IMG/VR virus record: IMGVR_UViG_2671180892_000013
Strand: one strand, 5' to 3'
Source: a virus
Lineage: Duplodnaviria; Heunggongvirae; Uroviricota; Caudoviricetes
Length of the DNA: 36,388 nucleotides
Shown in pieces: positions 1 to 36,388 of the stretch. Each line of letters opens with the position of its first letter. The first letter of the stretch is position 1. A program made the translations under genes and the position numbers. The notes beneath the pieces are model-generated. The model saw only the letters and a program-made list of their open reading frames with translations, made no database searches and was not told where the DNA came from.

Positions 1-258
1 ATGCAAACCGTTATTTTTGGTCGTTCGGGTTGCCCTTACTGTGTGCGTGCAAAAGATCTGGCTGAGAAATTGAGCAATGAACGCGATGATTTTCAGTATC
101 AGTATGTAGATATTCGTGCGGAAGGGATCACTAAAGAAGATCTACAACAAAAGGCAGGTAAACCCGTAGAAACCGTGCCGCAGATTTTTGTCGATCAGCA
201 ACATATCGGCGGCTATACCGATTTTGCTGCATGGGTGAAAGAAAATCTGGACGCCTGA
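1..258 (+). CDS. grxA: glutaredoxin 1
   Basis: 85-aa ORF with CPYC redox motif (GCPYCVRAKDLAEKL); full length starting at window position 1; matches my recollection of E. coli GrxA. Confidence 0.93.
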   Translation: MQTVIFGRSGCPYCVRAKDLAEKLSNERDDFQYQYVDIRAEGITKEDLQQKAGKPVETVPQIFVDQQHIGGYTDFAAWVKENLDA

Positions 259-267
259 TCGTCTGAC

Positions 268-300
268 AAGCCCTCGCGTTGAGGGCTTTACTGATTTTTT
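268..300 (+). terminator. stem-loop plus T-run between convergent grxA and ybjM
   Basis: Inverted repeat aagccctc/gagggctt followed by ctgatttttt directly after the grxA stop. Confidence 0.5.
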
Positions 301-665
301 CTGTGCTGTGGTTTAAACAAACTACTGATAAATAAGAAACACAGTGCCCCCAGCGCACACCAGAACACCGCGCTTAGTAACCATGCCAGCTCTTGCCAGA
401 ATGAGCGCGTCGGTGAAAAAAACAGCCGCATAATGAGCATCGAACAGGGTGCCGCCAGCATTGCGCCAAACAGAGGTTTCAGGACTTCTCTACGCTGTGA
501 AAAGAAGCTGGCGACTGCTCCAGGAAGAATGAAAAATAGCAAGCCGATTTCAGGATGCCCGGCAGCCCGAAAAGCGCCTTTCATGTGCGTCGCCAGAAAA
601 AGGCACACCACAATGAAGAGGACAAAACAGCAGATTGCCCCCGCCCAACGTTGTTTATGTTTCAC
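288..665 (-). CDS. ybjM: inner membrane protein YbjM
   Basis: 125-aa hydrophobic ORF lying between grxA and ybjL as in E. coli gene order. Confidence 0.85.
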   Translation of the reverse strand: MKHKQRWAGAICCFVLFIVVCLFLATHMKGAFRAAGHPEIGLLFFILPGAVASFFSQRREVLKPLFGAMLAAPCSMLIMRLFFSPTRSFWQELAWLLSAVFWCALGALCFLFISSLFKPQHRKNQ

Positions 666-934: not shown

Positions 935-2620
935 GTGAATATAAACGTCGCCGAATTGTTAAATGGGAATTACATTCTGTTATTATTTGTGGTCCTCGCG
1001 CTTGGGCTATGTCTCGGAAAGTTACGACTTGGTTCGATCCAACTGGGTAATTCCATTGGCGTTTTAGTCGTATCGCTGTTATTAGGCCAACAACATTTCA
1101 GCATTAACACCGATGCGCTTAATCTTGGCTTTATGCTGTTTATTTTCTGCGTCGGGGTCGAAGCCGGACCGAACTTTTTTTCCATTTTTTTTCGCGATGG
1201 GAAAAATTACCTAATGTTAGCACTGGTGATGGTTGGCAGTGCGCTGGTGATCGCCTTAGGGTTAGGTAAGCTGTTTGGCTGGGATATTGGCCTGACGGCC
1301 GGTATGTTAGCAGGCTCTATGACGTCGACACCGGTTCTGGTCGGTGCTGGCGATACACTGCGTCATTCCGGCATGGAAAGCAGGCAGCTCTCACTGGCAC
1401 TGGATAATCTGAGCCTCGGGTATGCCTTAACCTATTTAATCGGTCTGGTGAGTTTGATTGTTGGTGCGCGTTACTTGCCGAAATTGCAGCATCAGGACTT
1501 ACAGACCAGCGCCCAGCAAATCGCCCGCGAACGTGGCCTGGACACTGATGCCAACCGTAAGGTTTATTTACCGGTGATCCGCGCCTATCGCGTCGGCCCG
1601 GAACTGGTGGCCTGGACCGACGGCAAAAATCTGCGTGAACTGGGTATTTATCGACAAACCGGCTGCTACATTGAACGTATTCGACGTAACGGGATTCTGG
1701 CAAATCCAGACGGTGATGCCGTGCTACAAATGGGCGATGAAATAGCGTTGGTAGGCTATCCCGACGCCCATGCCCGACTCGATCCCAGCTTCCGTAACGG
1801 TAAAGAAGTTTTCGATCGTGACCTTCTCGACATGCGTATCGTCACTGAAGAAGTGGTCGTTAAAAACCATAACGCTGTAGGTAAACGTCTCGCACAACTG
1901 AAGTTGACCGATCACGGTTGCTTCCTTAACCGCGTCATTCGTAGCCAGATTGAGATGCCGATAGATGACAACGTCGTGCTTAACAAAGGTGACGTTTTAC
2001 AAGTCAGCGGCGATGCCCGCCGCGTAAAAACCATCGCCGATCGCATCGGCTTTATCTCGATTCACAGCCAGGTCACTGACCTGCTGGCATTCTGCGCCTT
2101 CTTTGTTATTGGGCTGATGATCGGGATGATCACCTTCCAGTTCAGCACATTCAGTTTCGGCATGGGGAACGCTGCCGGGTTGTTATTCGCCGGAATTATG
2201 CTGGGCTTTATGCGTGCTAACCACCCGACCTTCGGTTACATTCCGCAGGGTGCATTAAGCATGGTGAAAGAGTTCGGCTTGATGGTGTTTATGGCAGGCG
2301 TTGGTCTGAGCGCCGGTAGCGGTATTAATAACGGCCTGGGCGCGATTGGCGGTCAGATGTTGATTGCCGGATTGATTGTCAGTCTGGTGCCCGTGGTTAT
2401 CTGTTTCTTGTTCGGTGCTTATGTATTGCGAATGAACCGCGCGCTGTTGTTCGGCGCAATGATGGGCGCACGTACCTGCGCGCCGGCAATGGAGATCATC
2501 AGTGATACAGCTCGCAGTAACATCCCGGCGCTGGGCTATGCGGGCACCTATGCAATCGCCAACGTCCTGCTGACGCTGGCAGGGACAATCATCGTCATGG
2601 TATGGCCAGGATTAGGATAA
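935..2620 (+). CDS. ybjL: putative transport protein YbjL (AAE-family transporter with central TrkA-C-like domains)
   Basis: 561-aa ORF with membrane N- and C-terminal halves and a soluble middle; GTG start at 935; synteny with grxA and ybjM. Confidence 0.9.
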
Positions 2621-2732
2621 AACTGAAGTTGCCCTGAAAATGAAATTTTTTTGCACAACCGCAGAACTTTTCCGCAGGGCATCAGTCTTAATTAGTGCCA
2701 CTGCTTTTCTTTGATGTCCCCATTTTGTGGAG

Positions 2733-2776
2733 CCCATCAACCCCGCCATTTCGGTTCAAGGTTGATGGGTTTTTTG
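2733..2776 (+). terminator. rho-independent terminator-like hairpin downstream of ybjL
   Basis: cccatcaacc ... ggttgatggg 10-bp stem followed by ttttttg. Confidence 0.5.
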
Positions 2777-3046
2777 TTGCCTGAAATTCAATGCCTTTCA
2801 TATCATTAACTTAACTCATCCCATCTTAGCCATTGGCGACAAAATGGCGGCAGCGCATTTGAAGCCACATTGTTACCTTCAAAGCCCAAACAATTATTGC
2901 ATATCAGTCATACATATCTCATTTACAAAAACCTCCGAGATTTCAGTGCGTAACCTAAATTTCTTGGATGTACTAGCTTAAAAATGTTATTGATCTTAGT
3001 TGAGGTAAGAGATTGTTTTCATATGTTTTTAAACTAGGACGGCGCT

Positions 3047-3409
3047 ATGTGCATTTATGATTTTGTAGCTAACGATGGAAATACGTATCAGATTGATCTT
3101 GATGACGAGTACATTGAGGTTCGGCTAAGCGGTGAAAAAGTGGGTAGTATTAGTCTGAATTTGATTCAAAATGATGATTATTCACCCGATTATTATTACA
3201 TCACAGACCTTAGCCTCGAAAAGTGCAAAAGATTGGGTATAGGAAGAGAATGCTTACGGTTACATCAAAAAGAAATAAAGAGCCCAATCTGTGCTGCGGA
3301 AGAAAACTCGGTGAAAATGTCTGATGGAAGCCATCTTATTGGAGATGGAGTTCCTTTTATCGCTAAAATGCGTGATGAGGGAATCGTTGTCCCAAGTACA
3401 TATCATTAA
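3047..3409 (+). CDS. small GNAT-like (acetyltransferase-fold) hypothetical protein; cargo gene at prophage left end
   Basis: 120-aa ORF in AT-rich DNA with an R-L-G-I-G-R segment resembling GNAT motif A; agga 8 nt upstream of the ATG. Confidence 0.35.
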   Translation: MCIYDFVANDGNTYQIDLDDEYIEVRLSGEKVGSISLNLIQNDDYSPDYYYITDLSLEKCKRLGIGRECLRLHQKEIKSPICAAEENSVKMSDGSHLIGDGVPFIAKMRDEGIVVPSTYH

Positions 3410-3424
3410 TTTATCCCCTACTTT

Positions 3425-3446
3425 TAGCCCAGGGTGAACTGGGCTA
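3425..3446. terminator. hairpin between convergent GNAT-like gene and ogr
   Basis: tagcccag ggtgaa ctgggcta perfect 8-bp stem; no strong T-run. Confidence 0.35.
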
Positions 3447-3469
3447 GTTACCCACAAATTTTAAGCACT

Positions 3470-3685
3470 TCAGTAAACTAATTGTTCCTGCATACCTTTT
3501 GGATGAGGCGGCGCTGCGCTGATTTTTTGAGGACGGCATACTGAGCGCACAAAAGTCTCATGTGTCACGAACGTATGCCCGCACTCGATGTTAGTGCACT
3601 GGTTGTAGCGTTCTTTGGTTTCATTGGAAACCTGAAAGCTACTACGTGTATGCGCGGCCTGCCCGCACATTGGACAATTCATCAT
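3470..3685 (-). CDS. ogr: Ogr/B-family zinc-finger late-gene transcriptional activator
   Basis: 71 aa with CPMC ... C-x5-C cysteine pairs; sits next to gene D as in P2 and 186. Confidence 0.85.
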   Translation of the reverse strand: MMNCPMCGQAAHTRSSFQVSNETKERYNQCTNIECGHTFVTHETFVRSVCRPQKISAAPPHPKGMQEQLVY

Positions 3686-3752
3686 TTCGTTCAGCCCTCA
3701 CTCATAACCAGTTCGCAATAATGATACATTATTGTTCTCAATTTGGAACTAA

Positions 3753-24576: not shown

Positions 24577-25449
24577 CTACCAATTCATGCTTTCTTTTAA
24601 TTCAGTTCGCGCATTTTCAACAAGTTGTACCAACTCTTTAAGACTATCAGTTAACACTTGATGACTACCTTTATTTGTTCTATATGTTAACATATTTACA
24701 TTTAATGTTTTTTCAATAACAGGAACCATATCTCTATGAATACTTTTATCAGCCATAACCATATAATGTGGTTTAACAGCATTGTGCTTGAAAAAAGCAT
24801 CTTCCAGAAGAAGCCTTATATCGGGGTCATTAGCCCCACAACCTATAAATAGAAATGTATGCGTTAAACCCAAGGCATTAAGAATCTCGTAAAAATCTCT
24901 GTACTGTGATCTTGCCTTTGCATAATCACTTCTTGAAAAAATCAAGTTTGACGTATTATCAATTGTGCCGTGAATTTTCAGAATAACACGACCACTATCC
25001 TTTATTGCACTTGCAATATCACTATCAAAATAATTTTTGACACTTACCGTGCCTTCTGTTTCTTTACTAACATATGTTTCATATATTTTATCAAAATTAG
25101 GCGTTACAACAATCCTGCAATCTAATTTAAAAAGAAACTCATGTATATCTGCTTTAGCATAATGTGGATTCAAGAATGCATTTTTTGCAATTTCATCGAA
25201 CCTCCCTTTAGGAAGCTTTGCCTTAATTAATTCACAAGCAGTCAAATAATCTTCGTTTTTAATCAATCGTTTAATTTGTAGCGATGACCCAGAACTGAGT
25301 TCTGGTAAACATCCTTCAAGAAATTGTTTCCAACTTGGAGGCCGTGAATTACCTTTACCAACACTGTTCATTGAGACGCCTGCCCCCAGAAATAAAATAC
25401 ATTTCCGTCTCGCTAAATCGGAGACTAAGCTTTTATCCCAATTAATCAT
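24577..25449 (-). CDS. SIR2-like domain protein (predicted NAD-dependent effector), second gene of a two-gene cargo operon
   Basis: 290 aa; CILFLGAGVS glycine-rich motif near the N-terminus, TPNFD, IHGTID (HG), FLFIGCGANDPD; AT-rich; ATG overlaps the upstream ATPase stop (ATGA). Confidence 0.7.
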   Translation of the reverse strand: MINWDKSLVSDLARRKCILFLGAGVSMNSVGKGNSRPPSWKQFLEGCLPELSSGSSLQIKRLIKNEDYLTACELIKAKLPKGRFDEIAKNAFLNPHYAKADIHEFLFKLDCRIVVTPNFDKIYETYVSKETEGTVSVKNYFDSDIASAIKDSGRVILKIHGTIDNTSNLIFSRSDYAKARSQYRDFYEILNALGLTHTFLFIGCGANDPDIRLLLEDAFFKHNAVKPHYMVMADKSIHRDMVPVIEKTLNVNMLTYRTNKGSHQVLTDSLKELVQLVENARTELKESMNW

Positions 25450-26453
25450 GACTCACTCGCAGCAACATTATCAAGGATACGGGAACAAATACTTTCAAAA
25501 AGCTTCTTAGCATCGTTTACTTTTGAAAAGTGCGATCCTACTACCCCATCTTTATTTTTAAGATTAAAAATTGGAGCATTTGCTAATTGAGACAATGGAA
25601 TTAAGCTATTCATATTCTCAATTTGCCCTAAATCAAAATTCATATCTTGTTTTTTTGCGTAATTATTGATTATTTCTGCTTTCATTGCCTTAGGAATTTT
25701 AAGTGCAATTTTTTCATACGCATTAACTTTTACTTTCTCTCCCCTTACTGTTTTCCCTTTATATTGTTGCATCGCATACCCAAGAAACTTCAGTCTGCAC
25801 TGTAAAGATGAGCCATCGATGATAAAATCTTCACCTTCATTTTTAGTATAGTTTTTCAGGCCATCAGATACACCTTCCATCCAGGCCTTTAGCGAAAGGT
25901 TAATATTATTAAGAGCTAAAAGACTAAACATATCAACAGACATTGGAATAATGAAATAGTCACATGATATTATTATTGCTCTATTCAATGCACCTAATGA
26001 AGGGCCTACATCATATAAAATAAAATCATAGTCTTTATACATGGAGGACAGATGTGAAAAAACAAATGTTGTTTGTATACCTCGAGGTTTCCCTGCCACA
26101 GCGGGGTCCCAATCAGATGCTAAAAAATCCTCACTCAACGCTAACTTGGGATCCCCAGGAATCAAGTCAAAACCAAACCTATCAGTTTTTATTGGAACTA
26201 CACGAGTAGTTGCATATCCTTTTGCCCTCCGAACTGGGGTTAAGAAATTTTCAATTGTATTTCTCTTATCAGAACCATAAAGTTCATCAAGTTTTTTCTC
26301 TCCCAAACAATAAGATGTTGTGTTGCACTGAGGATCGGCGTCAATAACCAACACTTTTTTGTGCATCTCAAGACTAAGATAAGCACCAACATTACACAAC
26401 AATGTAGTTTTGCCAACGCCACCTTTATTATTGAAAAAAACTATACTGTTCAT
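25446..26453 (-). CDS. ParA/MinD-superfamily deviant Walker-A ATPase, first gene of the cargo operon
   Basis: 335 aa; NNKGGVGKTT at residues 8-17, VIDADPQ, ILYDVGPS; no ParB-like gene follows. Confidence 0.75.
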   Translation of the reverse strand: MNSIVFFNNKGGVGKTTLLCNVGAYLSLEMHKKVLVIDADPQCNTTSYCLGEKKLDELYGSDKRNTIENFLTPVRRAKGYATTRVVPIKTDRFGFDLIPGDPKLALSEDFLASDWDPAVAGKPRGIQTTFVFSHLSSMYKDYDFILYDVGPSLGALNRAIIISCDYFIIPMSVDMFSLLALNNINLSLKAWMEGVSDGLKNYTKNEGEDFIIDGSSLQCRLKFLGYAMQQYKGKTVRGEKVKVNAYEKIALKIPKAMKAEIINNYAKKQDMNFDLGQIENMNSLIPLSQLANAPIFNLKNKDGVVGSHFSKVNDAKKLFESICSRILDNVAASES

Positions 26454-27525: not shown

Positions 27526-27759
27526 TTAATGCAGCCAGCTGTCGTCCTCCCACACCTTCTGCATAATTTTCATCACTTGTTTTCTTTCTTCATCCAGTTG
27601 CAGTCCGGTTAGTTCCACACCGTTAGAGCTACCTTTGCGAATGCGAATTACCGTTTTGGGATACAGGGGGCGCAGATTGCGGTAAAGCTCGGATTCAAGG
27701 GCGTCCAGGGTAGACTGGCTAATCTTCTGCTCTTTATCGATCATTATTTCAATGCGCAT
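27526..27759 (-). CDS. DinI-family protein
   Basis: ATG at 27757-27759 with aggtga SD; product MRIEIMIDKEQKISQSTLDALESELYRNLRPLYP...VWEDDSWLH aligns with DinI (MRIE...DAL..EL...WE...W); the track ORF extends 24 codons upstream. Confidence 0.7.
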   Translation of the reverse strand: MRIEIMIDKEQKISQSTLDALESELYRNLRPLYPKTVIRIRKGSSNGVELTGLQLDEERKQVMKIMQKVWEDDSWLH

Positions 27760-27769
27760 AAAAGTCACC

Positions 27770-27958
27770 TCAGCTGATGACATCCATTGAGCGGTTGTAT
27801 TCGTGGCTTCTGATTTTTGCCATGAGTTCATCAGTCAATTCAGAAACCCACTGCAGAGCCAGCCCCTTCTCTTCATCACTACACTCACTAGCCGCTACAA
27901 GCTTAAGAAAAAAATCAATGCGCTGGAGCTTCAAAGACTCCAAAAAATAGTCCTGCAT
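27770..27958 (-). CDS. hypothetical small protein, first gene of the SOS-regulated pair (possible Tum-like antirepressor part)
   Basis: 62 aa; aggagga SD; LexA box 43 bp upstream; 186 Tum is an SOS-induced antirepressor with a DinI-like part (recalled). Confidence 0.45.
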   Translation of the reverse strand: MQDYFLESLKLQRIDFFLKLVAASECSDEEKGLALQWVSELTDELMAKIRSHEYNRSMDVIS

Positions 27959-32990: not shown

Positions 32991-33194
32991 TTAAGCAGAC
33001 AAAGCATCAACTGTCAGAGCAACCAGGTTAATCATTACCTTTTCACGTTTTTTGTCTTTTCGAAGACGATGACGAGGTAGTCGGCCATCAGCCAACATAT
33101 CGTTAATCGTATCAATAGAAAGGCCTGTCAGTTCGCTATAACGTTCGATCGTGACATGTGGTGTATTCAGAGTAATTGAAATGTTAGGTGTCAT
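32991..33194 (-). CDS. apl: Apl/Cox-like excisionase and switch regulator
   Basis: ATG at 33192-33194 with aagga SD; about 67-aa HTH protein, first gene of the lytic operon, divergent from cI. Confidence 0.6.
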   Translation of the reverse strand: MTPNISITLNTPHVTIERYSELTGLSIDTINDMLADGRLPRHRLRKDKKREKVMINLVALTVDALSA

Positions 33195-33339: not shown

Positions 33340-33915
33340 ATGGATTTCAGCAGCGGTGGTAAGAAAGTCATTGAACGTCTAGTTGAGGCGTACGGGTTCT
33401 CTACGAGACAAGCTCTTTGCGATCATTTGGGAGTATCCAAGAGCACCATGGCTACACGTTACATGCGAGACATCTTCCCTGCAGATTGGGTTTTGCAATG
33501 TGCTATTGAAACTGGTTATCCACTAGAATGGCTGGCATTCGGTATAGGGGACAAAAAACCCTCAAATATAAATGCACAAATTTTGGTACCAAAGAAAAAA
33601 TTAATTTCAGGAACGTTAATTGAAGATGGAGCATATATTTTTGATAAAACATTCTTACCTGAAAAAATATGTAATCCGTTCATCATTCAAGATCTGGATA
33701 ACGAATACATATGTAGCTCTGAATATAATGACATAAGCGATGGATTGTGGCTAATAGGCATAGACGAAAAAATTTCGGTCCGAACCCTGACCCGCTTACC
33801 TAATAACAGGTTATATGTTGAAGGAGGAAATCGTGGCTTTGAGTGTTCCAGAGATGAAATACAGGTTATTGGAATTGTGTGGTGCTGCATACTAAGAAGA
33901 GCAGAAAAATTTTAG
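33340..33915 (+). CDS. cI: CI-like immunity repressor
   Basis: ATG at 33340 preceded by ggagga; 191 aa, N-terminal HTH-like region (ERLVEAYGFSTRQALCDHLGVSKSTMATRY); 186 CI is about the same length. Confidence 0.7.
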   Translation: MDFSSGGKKVIERLVEAYGFSTRQALCDHLGVSKSTMATRYMRDIFPADWVLQCAIETGYPLEWLAFGIGDKKPSNINAQILVPKKKLISGTLIEDGAYIFDKTFLPEKICNPFIIQDLDNEYICSSEYNDISDGLWLIGIDEKISVRTLTRLPNNRLYVEGGNRGFECSRDEIQVIGIVWCCILRRAEKF

Positions 33916-33946: not shown

Positions 33947-35278
33947 ATGCCTATTGAATATACGTTTGATTATCGTGATGAGTTCCTTCGTAAGCCTATT
34001 GCTGAAAAATTAATAGCTCTACTGAACTCTGATATTAACTTATCTCCGCTGGTTATAGATGGCGGATGGGGCACGGGAAAAACAGAGTTTTGCAAAAAAG
34101 TTGCAAATCTAATTGAAAACAATAATCAAAAACATAAAGTAGTTTACATTGATGCTTTCGCTGAAGATCATAATGATGCCCCCATTTTGACGTTAATGGC
34201 AGGTGTTGCTGCACTTTTGCCCGAAGACAAACGAAAAGAGTTGATAAGCAAAACACTACCAGCAATACGTTTTGGTTTGAAAACCATTTTCAAAGCTGGC
34301 ACTGGATGGGTGTTAAAACAAAATGCAGATGACATTGTTGATGGCTTCGAAGATGCTATCAAAGAAGCCACTTCGAGTGCAATCGACAGTACAATTGAAA
34401 CATTATTAGACGATCATATAGAAGCACAGAAAAACATCGAGACATTGAGAAATACAATTTCGCAACTTACAGAGAAATTTAAAATAACGATTATTATAGA
34501 CGAACTGGACAGATGTAAACCTACATTCGCTCTTTCAATCATAGAAAATATTAAACACATTTTTGAAATAAAAAACTTGAATTTTGTTTTGGTTGCAAAG
34601 ACTCAACAACTCAAAGCATCAATAAGCCATCTGTATGGTTTATCCATAAATGCAGAACAGTATTTAGACAAATTCATAAAATTTACATTTGTATTGCCCG
34701 ATACATTTAAACCAGACAACTATACACCTGCATACGCATCTGTCGCTTTATGGGAAATATTAAAAAATGATTCTCAAAGACTGCAAGAAGTAAACGAAGA
34801 ATGCGGGCATATTATAAAAACGATAATACAAAGAGCTAAGTTGTCTTTACGTGAAGTAGAAACATTATCGCGCCATTTTGAAATATATCAGGTGCTATCT
34901 CAATCTGGAATTGGTCCAGAAAAAATATTTGGTTATTCATTATACCGAACGTTAGGAGTGATGCTATATTCTCTAAATCGCCCTTTGGCATTAAGCTATC
35001 TAGATAATTCTGTGGATGCAGAAAGTACTATCAAAACATTAGGCTTTGAATATTTAAGTTATGATGAGGATATTTATAGTGTAGATAATACTGAATATGC
35101 TATTTATGGGATCGTACTAGACTATATTGATGCAACATCTCCATTCTTTATAAAGGATGATGAAACCAGAAAAAAATGGACTGAACATGCTACCTATAGT
35201 TTCTTTCAAAAGGGCTTAAATACTGTTCCTCCCCGAAAACTTGTTTCGTCCGCCATTGAAGTTTTAATGCTCAACTAA
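33947..35278 (+). CDS. KAP-family P-loop NTPase; cargo gene between cI and int
   Basis: 443 aa; Walker A GGWGTGKT, Walker B IIIDELDRC; strongly AT-rich codon usage. Confidence 0.7.
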   Translation: MPIEYTFDYRDEFLRKPIAEKLIALLNSDINLSPLVIDGGWGTGKTEFCKKVANLIENNNQKHKVVYIDAFAEDHNDAPILTLMAGVAALLPEDKRKELISKTLPAIRFGLKTIFKAGTGWVLKQNADDIVDGFEDAIKEATSSAIDSTIETLLDDHIEAQKNIETLRNTISQLTEKFKITIIIDELDRCKPTFALSIIENIKHIFEIKNLNFVLVAKTQQLKASISHLYGLSINAEQYLDKFIKFTFVLPDTFKPDNYTPAYASVALWEILKNDSQRLQEVNEECGHIIKTIIQRAKLSLREVETLSRHFEIYQVLSQSGIGPEKIFGYSLYRTLGVMLYSLNRPLALSYLDNSVDAESTIKTLGFEYLSYDEDIYSVDNTEYAIYGIVLDYIDATSPFFIKDDETRKKWTEHATYSFFQKGLNTVPPRKLVSSAIEVLMLN

Positions 35279-35356: not shown

Positions 35357-36388
35357 ATGGCAGTACGAAAACTCACCACAGGAAAATGGCTTTGCGAATG
35401 TTACCCCGCCGGACGTAGTGGGCGTCGTGTGCGTAAACAATTCGCCACCAAAGGCGAAGCACTGGCTTTTGAGCGTCACACGATGGAAGAAACCGAAGCA
35501 AAGCCCTGGCTGGGTGAATCAGTGGATCGTCGAACACTGAAAGACGTGGTTGAGCTATGGTTCAAACTACATGGTAAATCTCTGACAGCTGGGCAGCATG
35601 TCTATGACAAATTGCTGTTGATGGTTGACGCTCTAGGCAATCCTCTTGCAACCGATCTCACCTCTAAAATGTTTGCCCACTATCGAGATAAACGCCTGAC
35701 AGGCGAGATCTACTTCAGCGAGAAATGGAAGAAAGGAGCAAGCCCGGTCACCATTAACCTGGAGCAAAGCTATCTAAGTAGTGTTTTTAGCGAACTATCC
35801 CGTCTGGGCGAATGGTCGTATCCGAACCCACTGGAGAACATGCGAAAATTCACCATCGCAGAAAAAGAGATGGCATGGCTTACCCATGAGCAGATTGTTG
35901 AATTGCTGGCTGATTGCAAACGTCAGGACCCAATTCTGGCACTGGTAGTTAAGATATGCTTAAGCACAGGCGCACGCTGGCGTGAAGCCGTAAATCTTAC
36001 CCGCTCACAGGTGACCAAATACCGAATTACCTTTGTAAGAACGAAGGGGAAGAAAAACAGAAGCATCCCTATCAGTAAAGAGCTTTACGAAGAGATCATG
36101 GCGCTTGATGGGTTCAATTTCTTCACAGACTGCTATTTTCAATTTTTATCCGTGATGGAAAAAACGTCTATCGTGCTCCCTCGCGGTCAACTGACACACG
36201 TTCTGCGCCATACGTTTGCGGCGCATTTCATGATGTCGGGTGGAAATATCCTTGCTTTGCAAAAAATCCTCGGACATCACGACATAAAAATGACCATGCG
36301 TTACGCACATCTGGCACCGGATCACCTGGAAACTGCATTACGGTTTAATCCGCTGGCAACACTACCAACATCAACAGCAACTGTTTGA
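35357..36388 (+). CDS. int: tyrosine recombinase / phage integrase
   Basis: ATG at 35357 preceded by ggaggg; C-terminal catalytic signature (HVLRHTFAAHF ... HHDIKMTMRYAHL); stop codon is the last three bases of the window. Confidence 0.88.
   Translation: MAVRKLTTGKWLCECYPAGRSGRRVRKQFATKGEALAFERHTMEETEAKPWLGESVDRRTLKDVVELWFKLHGKSLTAGQHVYDKLLLMVDALGNPLATDLTSKMFAHYRDKRLTGEIYFSEKWKKGASPVTINLEQSYLSSVFSELSRLGEWSYPNPLENMRKFTIAEKEMAWLTHEQIVELLADCKRQDPILALVVKICLSTGARWREAVNLTRSQVTKYRITFVRTKGKKNRSIPISKELYEEIMALDGFNFFTDCYFQFLSVMEKTSIVLPRGQLTHVLRHTFAAHFMMSGGNILALQKILGHHDIKMTMRYAHLAPDHLETALRFNPLATLPTSTATV

Follow-up and report, generated by a model that had tools for sequence, protein, structure and literature searches.

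Prophages of the rybB site and their relatives

The small RNA gene rybB is already known as an integration site of P2-like phages and Felsduovirus (Archer, 2011; Hudson, 2014; Hochhauser, 2023) and is a common, documented hotspot in Escherichia coli. The P2-like prophages Rybb*W/B/Cr were reported at the rybB ncRNA site (PMC3032704), and hotspot #29 comprises Felsduovirus prophages in rybB (PMC10121019). Kpn38RybB (PMC4048246) and PhiECO1 of E. coli HS (PMC3448106) have also been described; the position of the latter was checked in the HS genome, where the order is rcdA-orf-int ... ogr-rybB-ybjL. The complete prophage studied here occupies most of a window of 36,388 nt, the whole stretch of DNA that was analysed. 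It shares its chromosomal site, its P2 gene order and its variable cargo positions with PhiECO1, PhiECO2/3, Rybb*W/B/Cr and the Felsduovirus prophages of hotspot #29, whereas its cargo differs from that of the PhiECO1 group: ORF120 lies by the att arm, a KAP NTPase gene lies between cI and int, and a SIR2 + ParA-like pair is found near Q.

Among free phages, the Klebsiella phages KP12 and 4LV2017 (Peduoviridae) show about 95 % nucleotide identity to the prophage over 75 % of the structural region and have the same attP core and arms, and the Int of Klebsiella phage Kp4880-1 is 98.8 % identical. The GenBank record of 4LV2017 annotates the same att sequence, with attL and attR inside the Klebsiella rybB. 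In Klebsiella the identity between attP and attB extends over 19 bp (ATGGGTTTTTTGTTGCCTG), of which the E. coli attB fits the first 14 only. In both KP12 and 4LV2017 ogr follows directly past the arm, without ORF120.

Coliphage 186 integrates into the tRNA-Ile gene ileY at its 3' end, so that, as here, a structured RNA target is regenerated. It further resembles the present prophage in its arm repeats (YAYCGCCAYTY / tgccGCCActt), in CI/CII/Fil-type regulation and in having a small ORF that separates int from attP, and its IHF and Apl sites have candidate counterparts here. It differs in using a tRNA rather than an sRNA target, in its core (36 bp vs 14 bp) and core-binding specificity, and in its Orf69, which showed no similarity to orf89, the ORF downstream of int in strain E9. 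The use of sRNA and tmRNA 3' ends is seen in other P2-like phages, with attB of P2 at the cyaR sRNA locus and Fels-2 and SopE-phi at ssrA. In P2 the succession of ogr, Int arm, IHF, core, RDF sites, Int arm and int is the one predicted here, with nearly equal spacing, although P2 Int is only 35 % identical, the arm repeats read tgTGGaCa and P2 has its own 27-bp core.

Against this background, we are confident that positions 2620-3046 of the window hold the left junction (attL) between the chromosome and a P2/186-like prophage of the Peduoviridae, which entered the 3' end of rybB through site-specific recombination mediated by Int. The interval combines the rybB promoter and rybB itself with the core, the Int/IHF arm and the DNA upstream of a cargo ORF (Table 1).

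Table 1. Positions of host and prophage features in the 36,388-nt window.
Feature	Position	Strand	Evidence or remark
grxA (host)	1..258	+	85-aa ORF; same offset as annotated grxA in E. coli C and K-12
ybjM (host)	288..665	-	125-aa ORF; same offset as annotated ybjM in E. coli C and K-12
ybjL, aspartate:alanine antiporter (host)	935..2620	+	NCBIfam NF003440 equivalog, 1178 bits, full length
rybB sigma-E promoter	2663..2690	+	-35 AGAACTTTT (2663-2671), -10 GTCTTA (2685-2690); putative function, from literature
rybB sRNA gene, 79 nt, intact	2697..2775	+	Rfam RF00110; ends mapped from K-12 annotation b4417
rybB rho-independent terminator	stem 2731-2742 / 2760-2771 + U6		-25.2 kcal/mol; hairpin + T-run 2731-2775
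attL common core ATGGGTTTTTTGTT	2765..2778	.	sole block common to attL, attR and attB
ogr-side phage arm of att	2779..2855	.	joined to core as in free phage KP12
IHF-like site (candidate)	2801-2813		one mismatch to WATCAANNNNTTR
Two 11-bp-phased Int arm-type repeats, TGGCGACAAAATGGCGGCAGCG	2834-2855		putative Int binding
Low-GC spacer upstream of ORF120	2856..3046	.	34 % GC; belongs to a segment inserted in comparison with KP12, E. coli C and HS
ORF120, conserved cargo gene, weakly GNAT-like fold	3047..3409	+	14 homologous clusters
ogr/B late-gene activator, first core phage gene	3470..3685	-	Pfam Ogr_Delta 7.9e-21
Candidate Apl/Cox-type excisionase, 67 aa	32991..33194	-	divergent from cI; position as 186 apl, P2 cox
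186-type CI repressor	33340..33915	+	Pfam Phage_CI_repr + Phage_CI_C
KAP-family P-loop NTPase cargo gene, between cI and int	33947..35278	+	Pfam KAP_NTPase 1e-51; PADLOC PDC-S20 5e-174
int, 186-type tyrosine integrase, rybB-site specific	35357..36388	+	Pfam Int_N + Phage_integrase

Host genes and the rybB gene at the junction

Host gene order and offsets in the window agree with the annotation of E. coli C and K-12, and a Pfam Glutaredoxin match is present in grxA of identical loci. Past ybjL, which terminates with TAA at 2618-2620, and the junction, the phage genes run from ogr through D, U, T and so on to CI, the KAP NTPase and int; this P2-type order from ogr to int is also seen when the ORF map is lined up with 4LV2017, KP12 and E9. 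Host and prophage DNA both have a GC content of 50 %, which falls to 36.9 % in 2779-3046 and to 34.0 % in 2856-3046. The initial annotation, which had placed a prophage at the chromosomal ybjL-rcdA locus, was right about the locus, about the absence of rcdA from the window and about the window ending at the int stop (...TSTATV*, TGA at 36386-36388). Its succession of grxA-ybjM-ybjL, terminator, AT-rich DNA and phage genes also holds as an order, but the hairpin that it had assigned to ybjL terminates rybB, which is an sRNA gene distinct from ybjL and has a promoter of its own, predicted to be sigma-E-dependent. Likewise, the insertion indeed lies directly 3' of ybjL, yet the target is not featureless intergenic DNA, as the phage uses the 3' end of rybB.

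The rybB gene matches Rfam RF00110 over the whole model (1-79/79) with 105.3 bits (gathering score 40) and an E value of 7e-21, and no other family exceeded threshold in an Rfam scan of the whole window. Gene and promoter show 100 % identity to K-12 throughout the 199 nt to the left of the core. Relative to the published sigma-E promoter motifs GGAACTTTT (-35) and GTCAAA (-10) (PMC1804206), the rybB -35 and -10 elements carry one and two mismatches, respectively. The gene is located between ybjL and rcdA (ybjK) and co-oriented with ybjL, which is immediately upstream in the window; the K-12 order is rcdA-rybB-ybjL. RefSeq annotation gives no feature at the position of rybB, and its terminator was missed by the terminator scanner because the 17-nt loop exceeds the limit of that program. 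A scan of 2550-3750 for sigma-70 promoters and terminators yielded counts no higher than in shuffled sequence. Since no separate intrinsic terminator for ybjL was detected between 2620 and 2697, the rybB hairpin may also end ybjL transcripts.

Attachment core, arms and integrase

To delimit the junction, attL was taken from the window, attB from the empty K-12 site and attR from other genomes (E9 and others), E9 being chosen as it is 99.9 % identical to the window at the int end. Strain 2c3, which alone among 5,426 complete E. coli genomes contains the left junction in full, was rejected as the attR source because it diverges on the cI/int side, where it has a DUF2971 gene and another cI. AttL equals attB at 199/199 nt left of the core, with 27 % identity right of it; conversely, attR and attB share 99 % identity right of the core and 27 % left. 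The comparison with the prophage-free site, proposed in the initial annotation, thus gives an exact left boundary with the phage arm beginning at 2779. The 14-bp core consists of the final 11 nt of rybB and 3 further nt (GTT), and its rybB part corresponds to the descending terminator stem and the U-tract. A break in homology near 2855 was rejected as the host/phage boundary: in E. coli C and B this site is occupied by a P2-like remnant, and the break therefore separates two phage sequences.

Extension past int, also proposed earlier, was provided by E9, in which the direct repeat lies 450 bp after the int stop and is followed by rcdA. The att site had been regarded as unresolved. It is true that the repeat is invisible from the window alone, where the core (0.02 matches expected by chance) and the arm repeat (0.01 expected) each occur once; with outside sequence, however, the core was found. 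Ten other loci encode exactly this Int. The core lies 450 bp past the int stop in eight of them and at +1604 in the other two, shifted by an inserted transposase gene, and in nine it is followed by rcdA-ybjJ. The far-side neighbour is accordingly rcdA, as given in the initial annotation, and it is found past attR in E9, HS and these nine loci. The slot between int and attR differs between strains and may hold orf89, DUF2971 or IS elements. For the genome from which the window comes, a second core copy (attR) would be expected about 450 bp beyond the window end, then rcdA, with ...CCCGTTTACATAA and the arm GTGGCGACAAAGTGGCGGCAG before the core ATGGGTTTTTTGTT, and ATCTAAAA(C/T)TTATCTACTACCC and rcdA after it. 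Free phage KP12 carries the attP predicted for this prophage as one uninterrupted sequence between int and ogr.

The reverse complement of the arm repeat fits the published 186-type consensus tgccGCCActt, and the repeat fits YAYCGCCAYTY, which the phage 186 record annotates as consensus. Of the two arms, the window includes only the one on the ogr side; the int-side arm reads GTGGCGACAAAGTGGCGGCAG in KP12 and all ten Int loci. From the core to the ogr-side arm there are 69 bp here and 63 in P2 (annotated attP), and to the int-side arm about 114-117 bp here and 114 in P2. KP12 too has an IHF-like match with one mismatch, and the repeat AACTTATTGTTTT, present twice between the int-side arm and the core, is a candidate Apl/Cox site. 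Int, IHF and Apl sites were assigned from motif and position alone.

The encoded integrase matches Pfam PF00589 (6.7e-22) and PF24624 (3e-32), and its ARW..E, HVLRH, GH and RYAH motifs align with those of 186 and P2 Int. Identity amounts to 99 % with the PhiECO1 Int of E. coli HS, 55 % with 186 Int and 35 % with P2 Int, and among phage records it falls sharply from at least 95 % to at most 56 %, which places this Int in the specificity group of PhiECO1. The N-terminal residues W11/E14/Y16 are as in 186, whereas P2 has Y11, D14 and R16; these positions discriminate the 186 type (W/E/Y) from P2 (Y/D/R) (PMC3448106).

It is likely that this Int is heterobivalent, as in the 186 type. Its N-terminal domain would contact the arm repeats that flank the attP core, with TGGCGACAAAATGGCGGCA as putative target, while the core-binding domain would contact the core, and the arms would presumably be bent by IHF. 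Strand exchange would take place inside the 14-bp identity, where the exact junction is seen. In KP12 and E9 the phage has a terminator hairpin of its own past the lysogenic operon, whose 3' half is formed by the attP core, and therefore both products of integration retain a full hairpin and T-run; the attL and attR hairpins both fold. At attL rybB is unchanged base for base, and in E9 the phage terminator is kept at attR, facing rcdA. Because the phage brings a matching half-terminator, the RybB sRNA, which belongs to the envelope-stress response, is intact after integration. Excision would probably require Int together with a small Apl/Cox-like protein encoded opposite cI. The candidate is a 67-aa HTH ORF with weak homology, i.e., a below-threshold Pfam Phage_Cox match (E 0.028) and BLASTP matches to the P2 Cox N-terminus (3e-5) and 186 Apl (2e-4).

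The best label for this locus is rybB plus attL, with a prophage of PhiECO1/Felsduovirus type whose boundary lies at 2765-2778; this is mainly an annotation matter and leaves current understanding unchanged. The locus provides another clean case in which a temperate phage has a regulatory RNA gene's terminator as its target and brings the matching half-terminator along. The rybB junction is intact in 4,227 of the 5,426 complete E. coli genomes and interrupted in about 22 %, and rybB is joined to this arm in 930. Roughly one in five E. coli genomes has this site filled, and it is known as a carrier of exchangeable defence cargo; exact boundaries aid the comparison of this cargo among strains.

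Alternative origins and the ORF120 segment

A tentative alternative, which we consider possible but unlikely, is that the prophage is a mosaic produced by homologous recombination among P2-like prophages or remnants resident at rybB, the att junctions dating from an older event. Its two ends occur in different strains: among the complete genomes the left junction with ORF120 is found only in 2c3, which differs in cI-side and int-side content, and E9 and VTB97432v alone have the KAP-int end at 99.9 % identity. Remnants at rybB are common, as in E. coli B, C and Crooks, and cargo is exchangeable at fixed positions (Hochhauser et al.). Nevertheless, the same left/right combination may exist in draft assemblies. 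Such a history would also be compatible with an Int-mediated origin of the junctions, which are exact; Int is intact, as are both arm types and the core.

The low-GC segment 2856-3469, containing ORF120, might instead be a small element in its own right, or what is left of a tandem insertion at rybB, lying outside the phage genome. Its composition (34-38 % GC vs 50 % elsewhere) and the fact that ORF120 is missing from 50,697/50,697 phage records are in line with this proposal, as is assembly L018, in which the core is followed by a different phage-type arm and unrelated genes, indicating that tandem occupancy may occur. We nonetheless regard it as improbable. The segment is internal to the Int arm site, the arm is joined to the core as in KP12, a second copy of core or arm is absent from the window, and Enterobacter homologues of ORF120 occupy the same slot. 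Since the Int arm site is contiguous with the core, the ORF120 segment lies between arm and ogr and within the excisable unit. Insertion into anonymous DNA just past a ybjL terminator, with no host gene in the att site, could appeal to the empty RefSeq annotation and to a hairpin that may serve ybjL as well, but it is already refuted by the rybB match and the core position, the hairpin being part of a full-length rybB that holds 11 of the 14 core bases and that the literature gives as the target.

Within a prophage integrated by Int at rybB, ORF120 is an only mildly unusual item, set between the att arm and ogr. Alignment of the attL arm showed that ogr directly follows the arm in KP12, E. coli C and HS, whereas ORF120, where present, is always located between ybjL/rybB and ogr. 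No match was obtained in Pfam, PADLOC or NCBIfam. The AF2 model (pLDDT 84.6) gave Foldseek matches that are all GNAT, with a best E value of 4e-3, a weak signal. The spacer 2856-3046 contains no convincing sigma-70 site above shuffle expectation. It is conceivable, though we hold it to be a long shot, that ORF120 encodes a conserved truncated GNAT-like protein confined to rybB-resident prophages, just downstream of rybB and in the same orientation, and that it represents an unrecognised lysogenic-conversion or anti-phage gene at a third P2-like cargo slot (att arm/ogr), perhaps expressed under envelope stress via read-through from the sigma-E-driven rybB promoter. In exact-protein look-ups, Int and ORF120 were both widespread.

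Exact junctions at the 3' end of rybB

The initial annotation placed a prophage at the ybjL locus, which is borne out by the succession of host genes, low-GC DNA (37 % in 2779-3046 vs 50 % elsewhere) and P2/186-like genes. The order and offsets of grxA, ybjM and ybjL agree with annotated E. coli C and K-12, and ybjL aligns over its full length with the aspartate:alanine antiporter equivalog (1178 bits). However, the hairpin earlier read as the ybjL terminator belongs to rybB, and targeting of the rybB 3' end by the phage had been missed as well. An Rfam scan of the whole window gave a single match, RybB (RF00110; 105.3 bits, gathering score 40), covering 79/79 model positions at 2700-2778; when the K-12 annotation (b4417) is transferred to the window, rybB falls at 2697-2775. 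The ybjL stop is separated from rybB +1 by 76 bp, and the sigma-E-like elements upstream of rybB, AGAACTTTT (2663-2671) and GTCTTA (2685-2690), are close to the sigma-E motifs given for this gene, GGAACTTTT and GTCAAA (Papenfort et al., 2006, PMC1804206). RNA folding gave a RybB terminator of a 12-bp stem plus U6 (-25.2 kcal/mol, z = -3.3), and no separate ybjL terminator was detected by a terminator scan. Most E. coli RefSeq annotations carry no feature at rybB ('none' under match), so the att site resembles empty intergenic DNA there.

It had also been stated, correctly, that the window stops exactly at the int stop (...TSTATV*, TGA at 36386-36388), and att had been left unresolved. The att core was found using K-12 as the empty-site reference (attB; 19 bp separate the end of rybB from the rcdA stop codon) and E. 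coli E9 for the far junction (attR); the attR data come from genomes other than the window's own source. Over the final 2.5 kb, which spans KAP and int, E9 and the window share 99.9 % identity, and past int E9 carries a 270-bp ORF, a second core copy and then rcdA. The sole block common to attL (the junction in the window), attR and attB is the 14-nt core ATGGGTTTTTTGTT, whose single copy in the window is at 2765-2778 (0.02 expected by chance). To the left of the core attL equals attB at 199/199 positions, and to the right identity is 27 %; for attR of E9 the pattern is reversed, with 99 % identity to attB right of the core and 27 % left of it. The final 11 nt of rybB and a following GTT make up the core, and rybB is therefore regenerated intact.

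Ten further loci encoding exactly this Int were compared. The core lies 450 bp past the int stop in 8/10 and at +1604 in the other two, owing to an inserted transposase gene, and rcdA-ybjJ-ybjI come next in 9/10. The attL of the window recurs in seven loci encoding exactly ORF120, a 120-aa cargo ORF. In assembly L018 (4483-4530; ENA ERZ989084), the post-int core is followed by a different phage-type arm (gcctgaaattccc...) instead of rcdA-side DNA, with unrelated genes nearby, including a GIY-YIG gene; the rybB site may be occupied in tandem here, or the junction may be attP-like.

Phage attachment sites and occupancy of rybB

The attP (phage site) predicted by joining the E9 int-side arm to the ogr-side arm of the window is contiguous between int and ogr of Klebsiella phage KP12. 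The GenBank entry for Klebsiella phage 4LV2017, in which the host flank is Klebsiella rybB, annotates attL and attR as CAGGCAACAAAAAACCCAT, which includes the reverse complement of the core and five more bases. Identity of attP and attB spans 19 bp in Klebsiella-type flanks, whereas E. coli attB shares only the first 14.

Of 5,426 complete E. coli genomes, 4,227 retain an intact rybB-rcdA junction (~22 % interrupted). Among the same genomes, rybB is fused to this arm type in 930, and 1,134 match a KAP NTPase-int query; remnants are also present there in E. coli B and C. Phage integration at rybB has been described before; the finding is genuine but unremarkable. P2-like prophages Rybb*W, Rybb*B and Rybb*Cr, of which Rybb*B carries retron Ec86, were reported to be inserted at the 'rybB ncRNA', and cyaR was listed as another sRNA site used by P2-like phages (Archer et al., 2011, PMC3032704). 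The Klebsiella island Kpn38RybB lies 'precisely within' rybB (Hudson et al., 2014, PMC4048246), and the only occupants of hotspot #29 are Felsduovirus prophages in rybB with variable defence systems (Hochhauser et al., 2023, PMC10121019). PhiECO1, PhiECO2 and PhiECO3 were catalogued at one common site (Nilsson and Haggard-Ljungquist, 2011, PMC3448106); for PhiECO1 in E. coli HS the layout rcdA-orf-int ... ogr-ybjL was verified here.

Of the 5,426 complete genomes, strain 2c3 alone has the left junction with ORF120, and the KAP-int end at 99.9 % identity is confined to E9 and VTB97432v. Both ends together were found in 0/5,426, which suggests that the window is a mosaic produced by recombination among rybB-resident prophages.

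Integrase, arms and proposed mechanism

Int contains the Pfam domains Int_N and Phage_integrase and is 99 % identical to Int of the E. coli HS prophage, 55 % to that of 186 and 35 % to that of P2. Identity among phage records falls from at least 95 % straight to at most 56 %, a drop which indicates that this Int belongs to a distinct specificity group. At the N-terminus it shares W11, E14 and Y16 with 186, whereas P2 has Y, D and R; these residues have been proposed to discriminate arm-site types (Nilsson and Haggard-Ljungquist, 2011, PMC3448106). The ogr-side arm TGGCGACAAAATGGCGGCA, two 11-bp-phased repeats, is single-copy in the window (2834-2852; 0.01 expected by chance), and its reverse complement fits both the 186-type arm consensus tgccGCCActt (PMC3448106) and YAYCGCCAYTY, the consensus annotated in the phage 186 record. 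In every Int locus and in KP12, the int-side partner arm GTGGCGACAAAGTGGCGGCAG is found 115 bp upstream of the core. Compared with P2, the spacing from core to int-side arm is ~114-117 bp here and 114 bp there, and the ogr-side arm is 69 bp from the core here and 63 bp in P2. On the ogr side, the DNA from arm to core contains an IHF-like candidate site with one mismatch (2801-2813); on the int side, the corresponding interval has two copies of AACTTATTGTTTT, 19 bp apart, as candidate accessory sites. These candidates fall at the places taken by Cox/Apl and IHF sites in P2 and 186.

At the end of the cI-int operon, attP holds a phage hairpin (CCCGTTTACATAAATGGG then T6, -9 kcal/mol) whose 3' half is the core. 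Recombination of this half-terminator with the rybB terminator therefore leaves complete terminators at both attL and attR, and rybB survives. The sequences directly demonstrate the exact junctions, the unbroken rybB, the contiguity of attP and the motif matches. Protein binding, DNA bending, cleavage positions and control of excision directionality would presumably follow P2 and 186.

Prophage content and variable slots

A complete P2/186-like prophage runs from ~3470 to the window end in reverse P2 orientation (ogr, D, U, T ... P, Q ... A, Dam, CII, Apl-like gene, CI, KAP NTPase, int). Its structural region matches Klebsiella and E. coli Peduoviridae phages at ~95 % identity across 75 % of the region.

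Host, cargo and accessory genes in the window
Feature	Position	Strand	Remark
grxA	1-258		host gene
ybjM	288-665	-	host gene
ybjL	935-2620		host gene
ORF120	3047-3409	+	conserved 120-aa protein, 38 % GC, between att arm and ogr
Two-gene cassette	24577-26453	-	P2 old/tin cargo slot, adjoins portal gene Q
SIR2_2-domain protein	24577-25449	-	290 aa, cassette gene
ParA-like AAA_31 ATPase	25446-26453	-	335 aa, cassette gene
DinI-like protein	27526-27831	-	Pfam DinI, 1.2e-22; between cargo slot and replication gene A
Excisionase candidate	32991-33194	-	position and weak similarity
KAP-family P-loop NTPase	33947-35278	+	inserted between cI and int

ORF120 is the only unusual feature near the 2620-3046 interval. 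It has no match in Pfam, PADLOC or NCBIfam, is absent from 50,697/50,697 phage records, and has only 14 homologous clusters, always between ybjL/rybB and ogr in P2-like prophages of E. coli and Enterobacter. Its AF2 model is confident (pLDDT 84.6), and the top Foldseek matches, all GNAT acetyltransferases, are weak (best E 4e-3, TM about 0.5), so that the fold is only weakly GNAT-like. The protein also has an 'RLGIGR' motif recalling the GNAT CoA-binding loop. Just upstream of the ORF120 start codon, a 15-nt inverted repeat (2970-2984 / 3026-3040, 87 % complementary) may be an operator or RNA structure.

In PADLOC, the KAP NTPase hits candidate defence family PDC-S20 (5e-174), with weak matches to PifA and QatA as well; rybB-site prophages in HS and 2c3 instead have a small 'YdcA family' ORF at this place. 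In the two-gene cassette, the ATPase stop overlaps the SIR2_2 gene start. Because the cassette gave domain-level matches only, to the SIR2 domains of ThsA, LmuA, Dsr and Avs5, and matched no named defence system, its products are possibly an uncharacterised defence pair.

Another variable slot extends from the int stop to the attP arm (L005 7492-7941; L001; L020/L024; L007). In E9 and HS an 89-aa ORF without family lies there; 2c3 has a DUF2971 gene, and assemblies L020 and L024 each have an inserted transposase gene. In KP12 the slot is empty, with overlap between the arm repeat and the 3' end of int.
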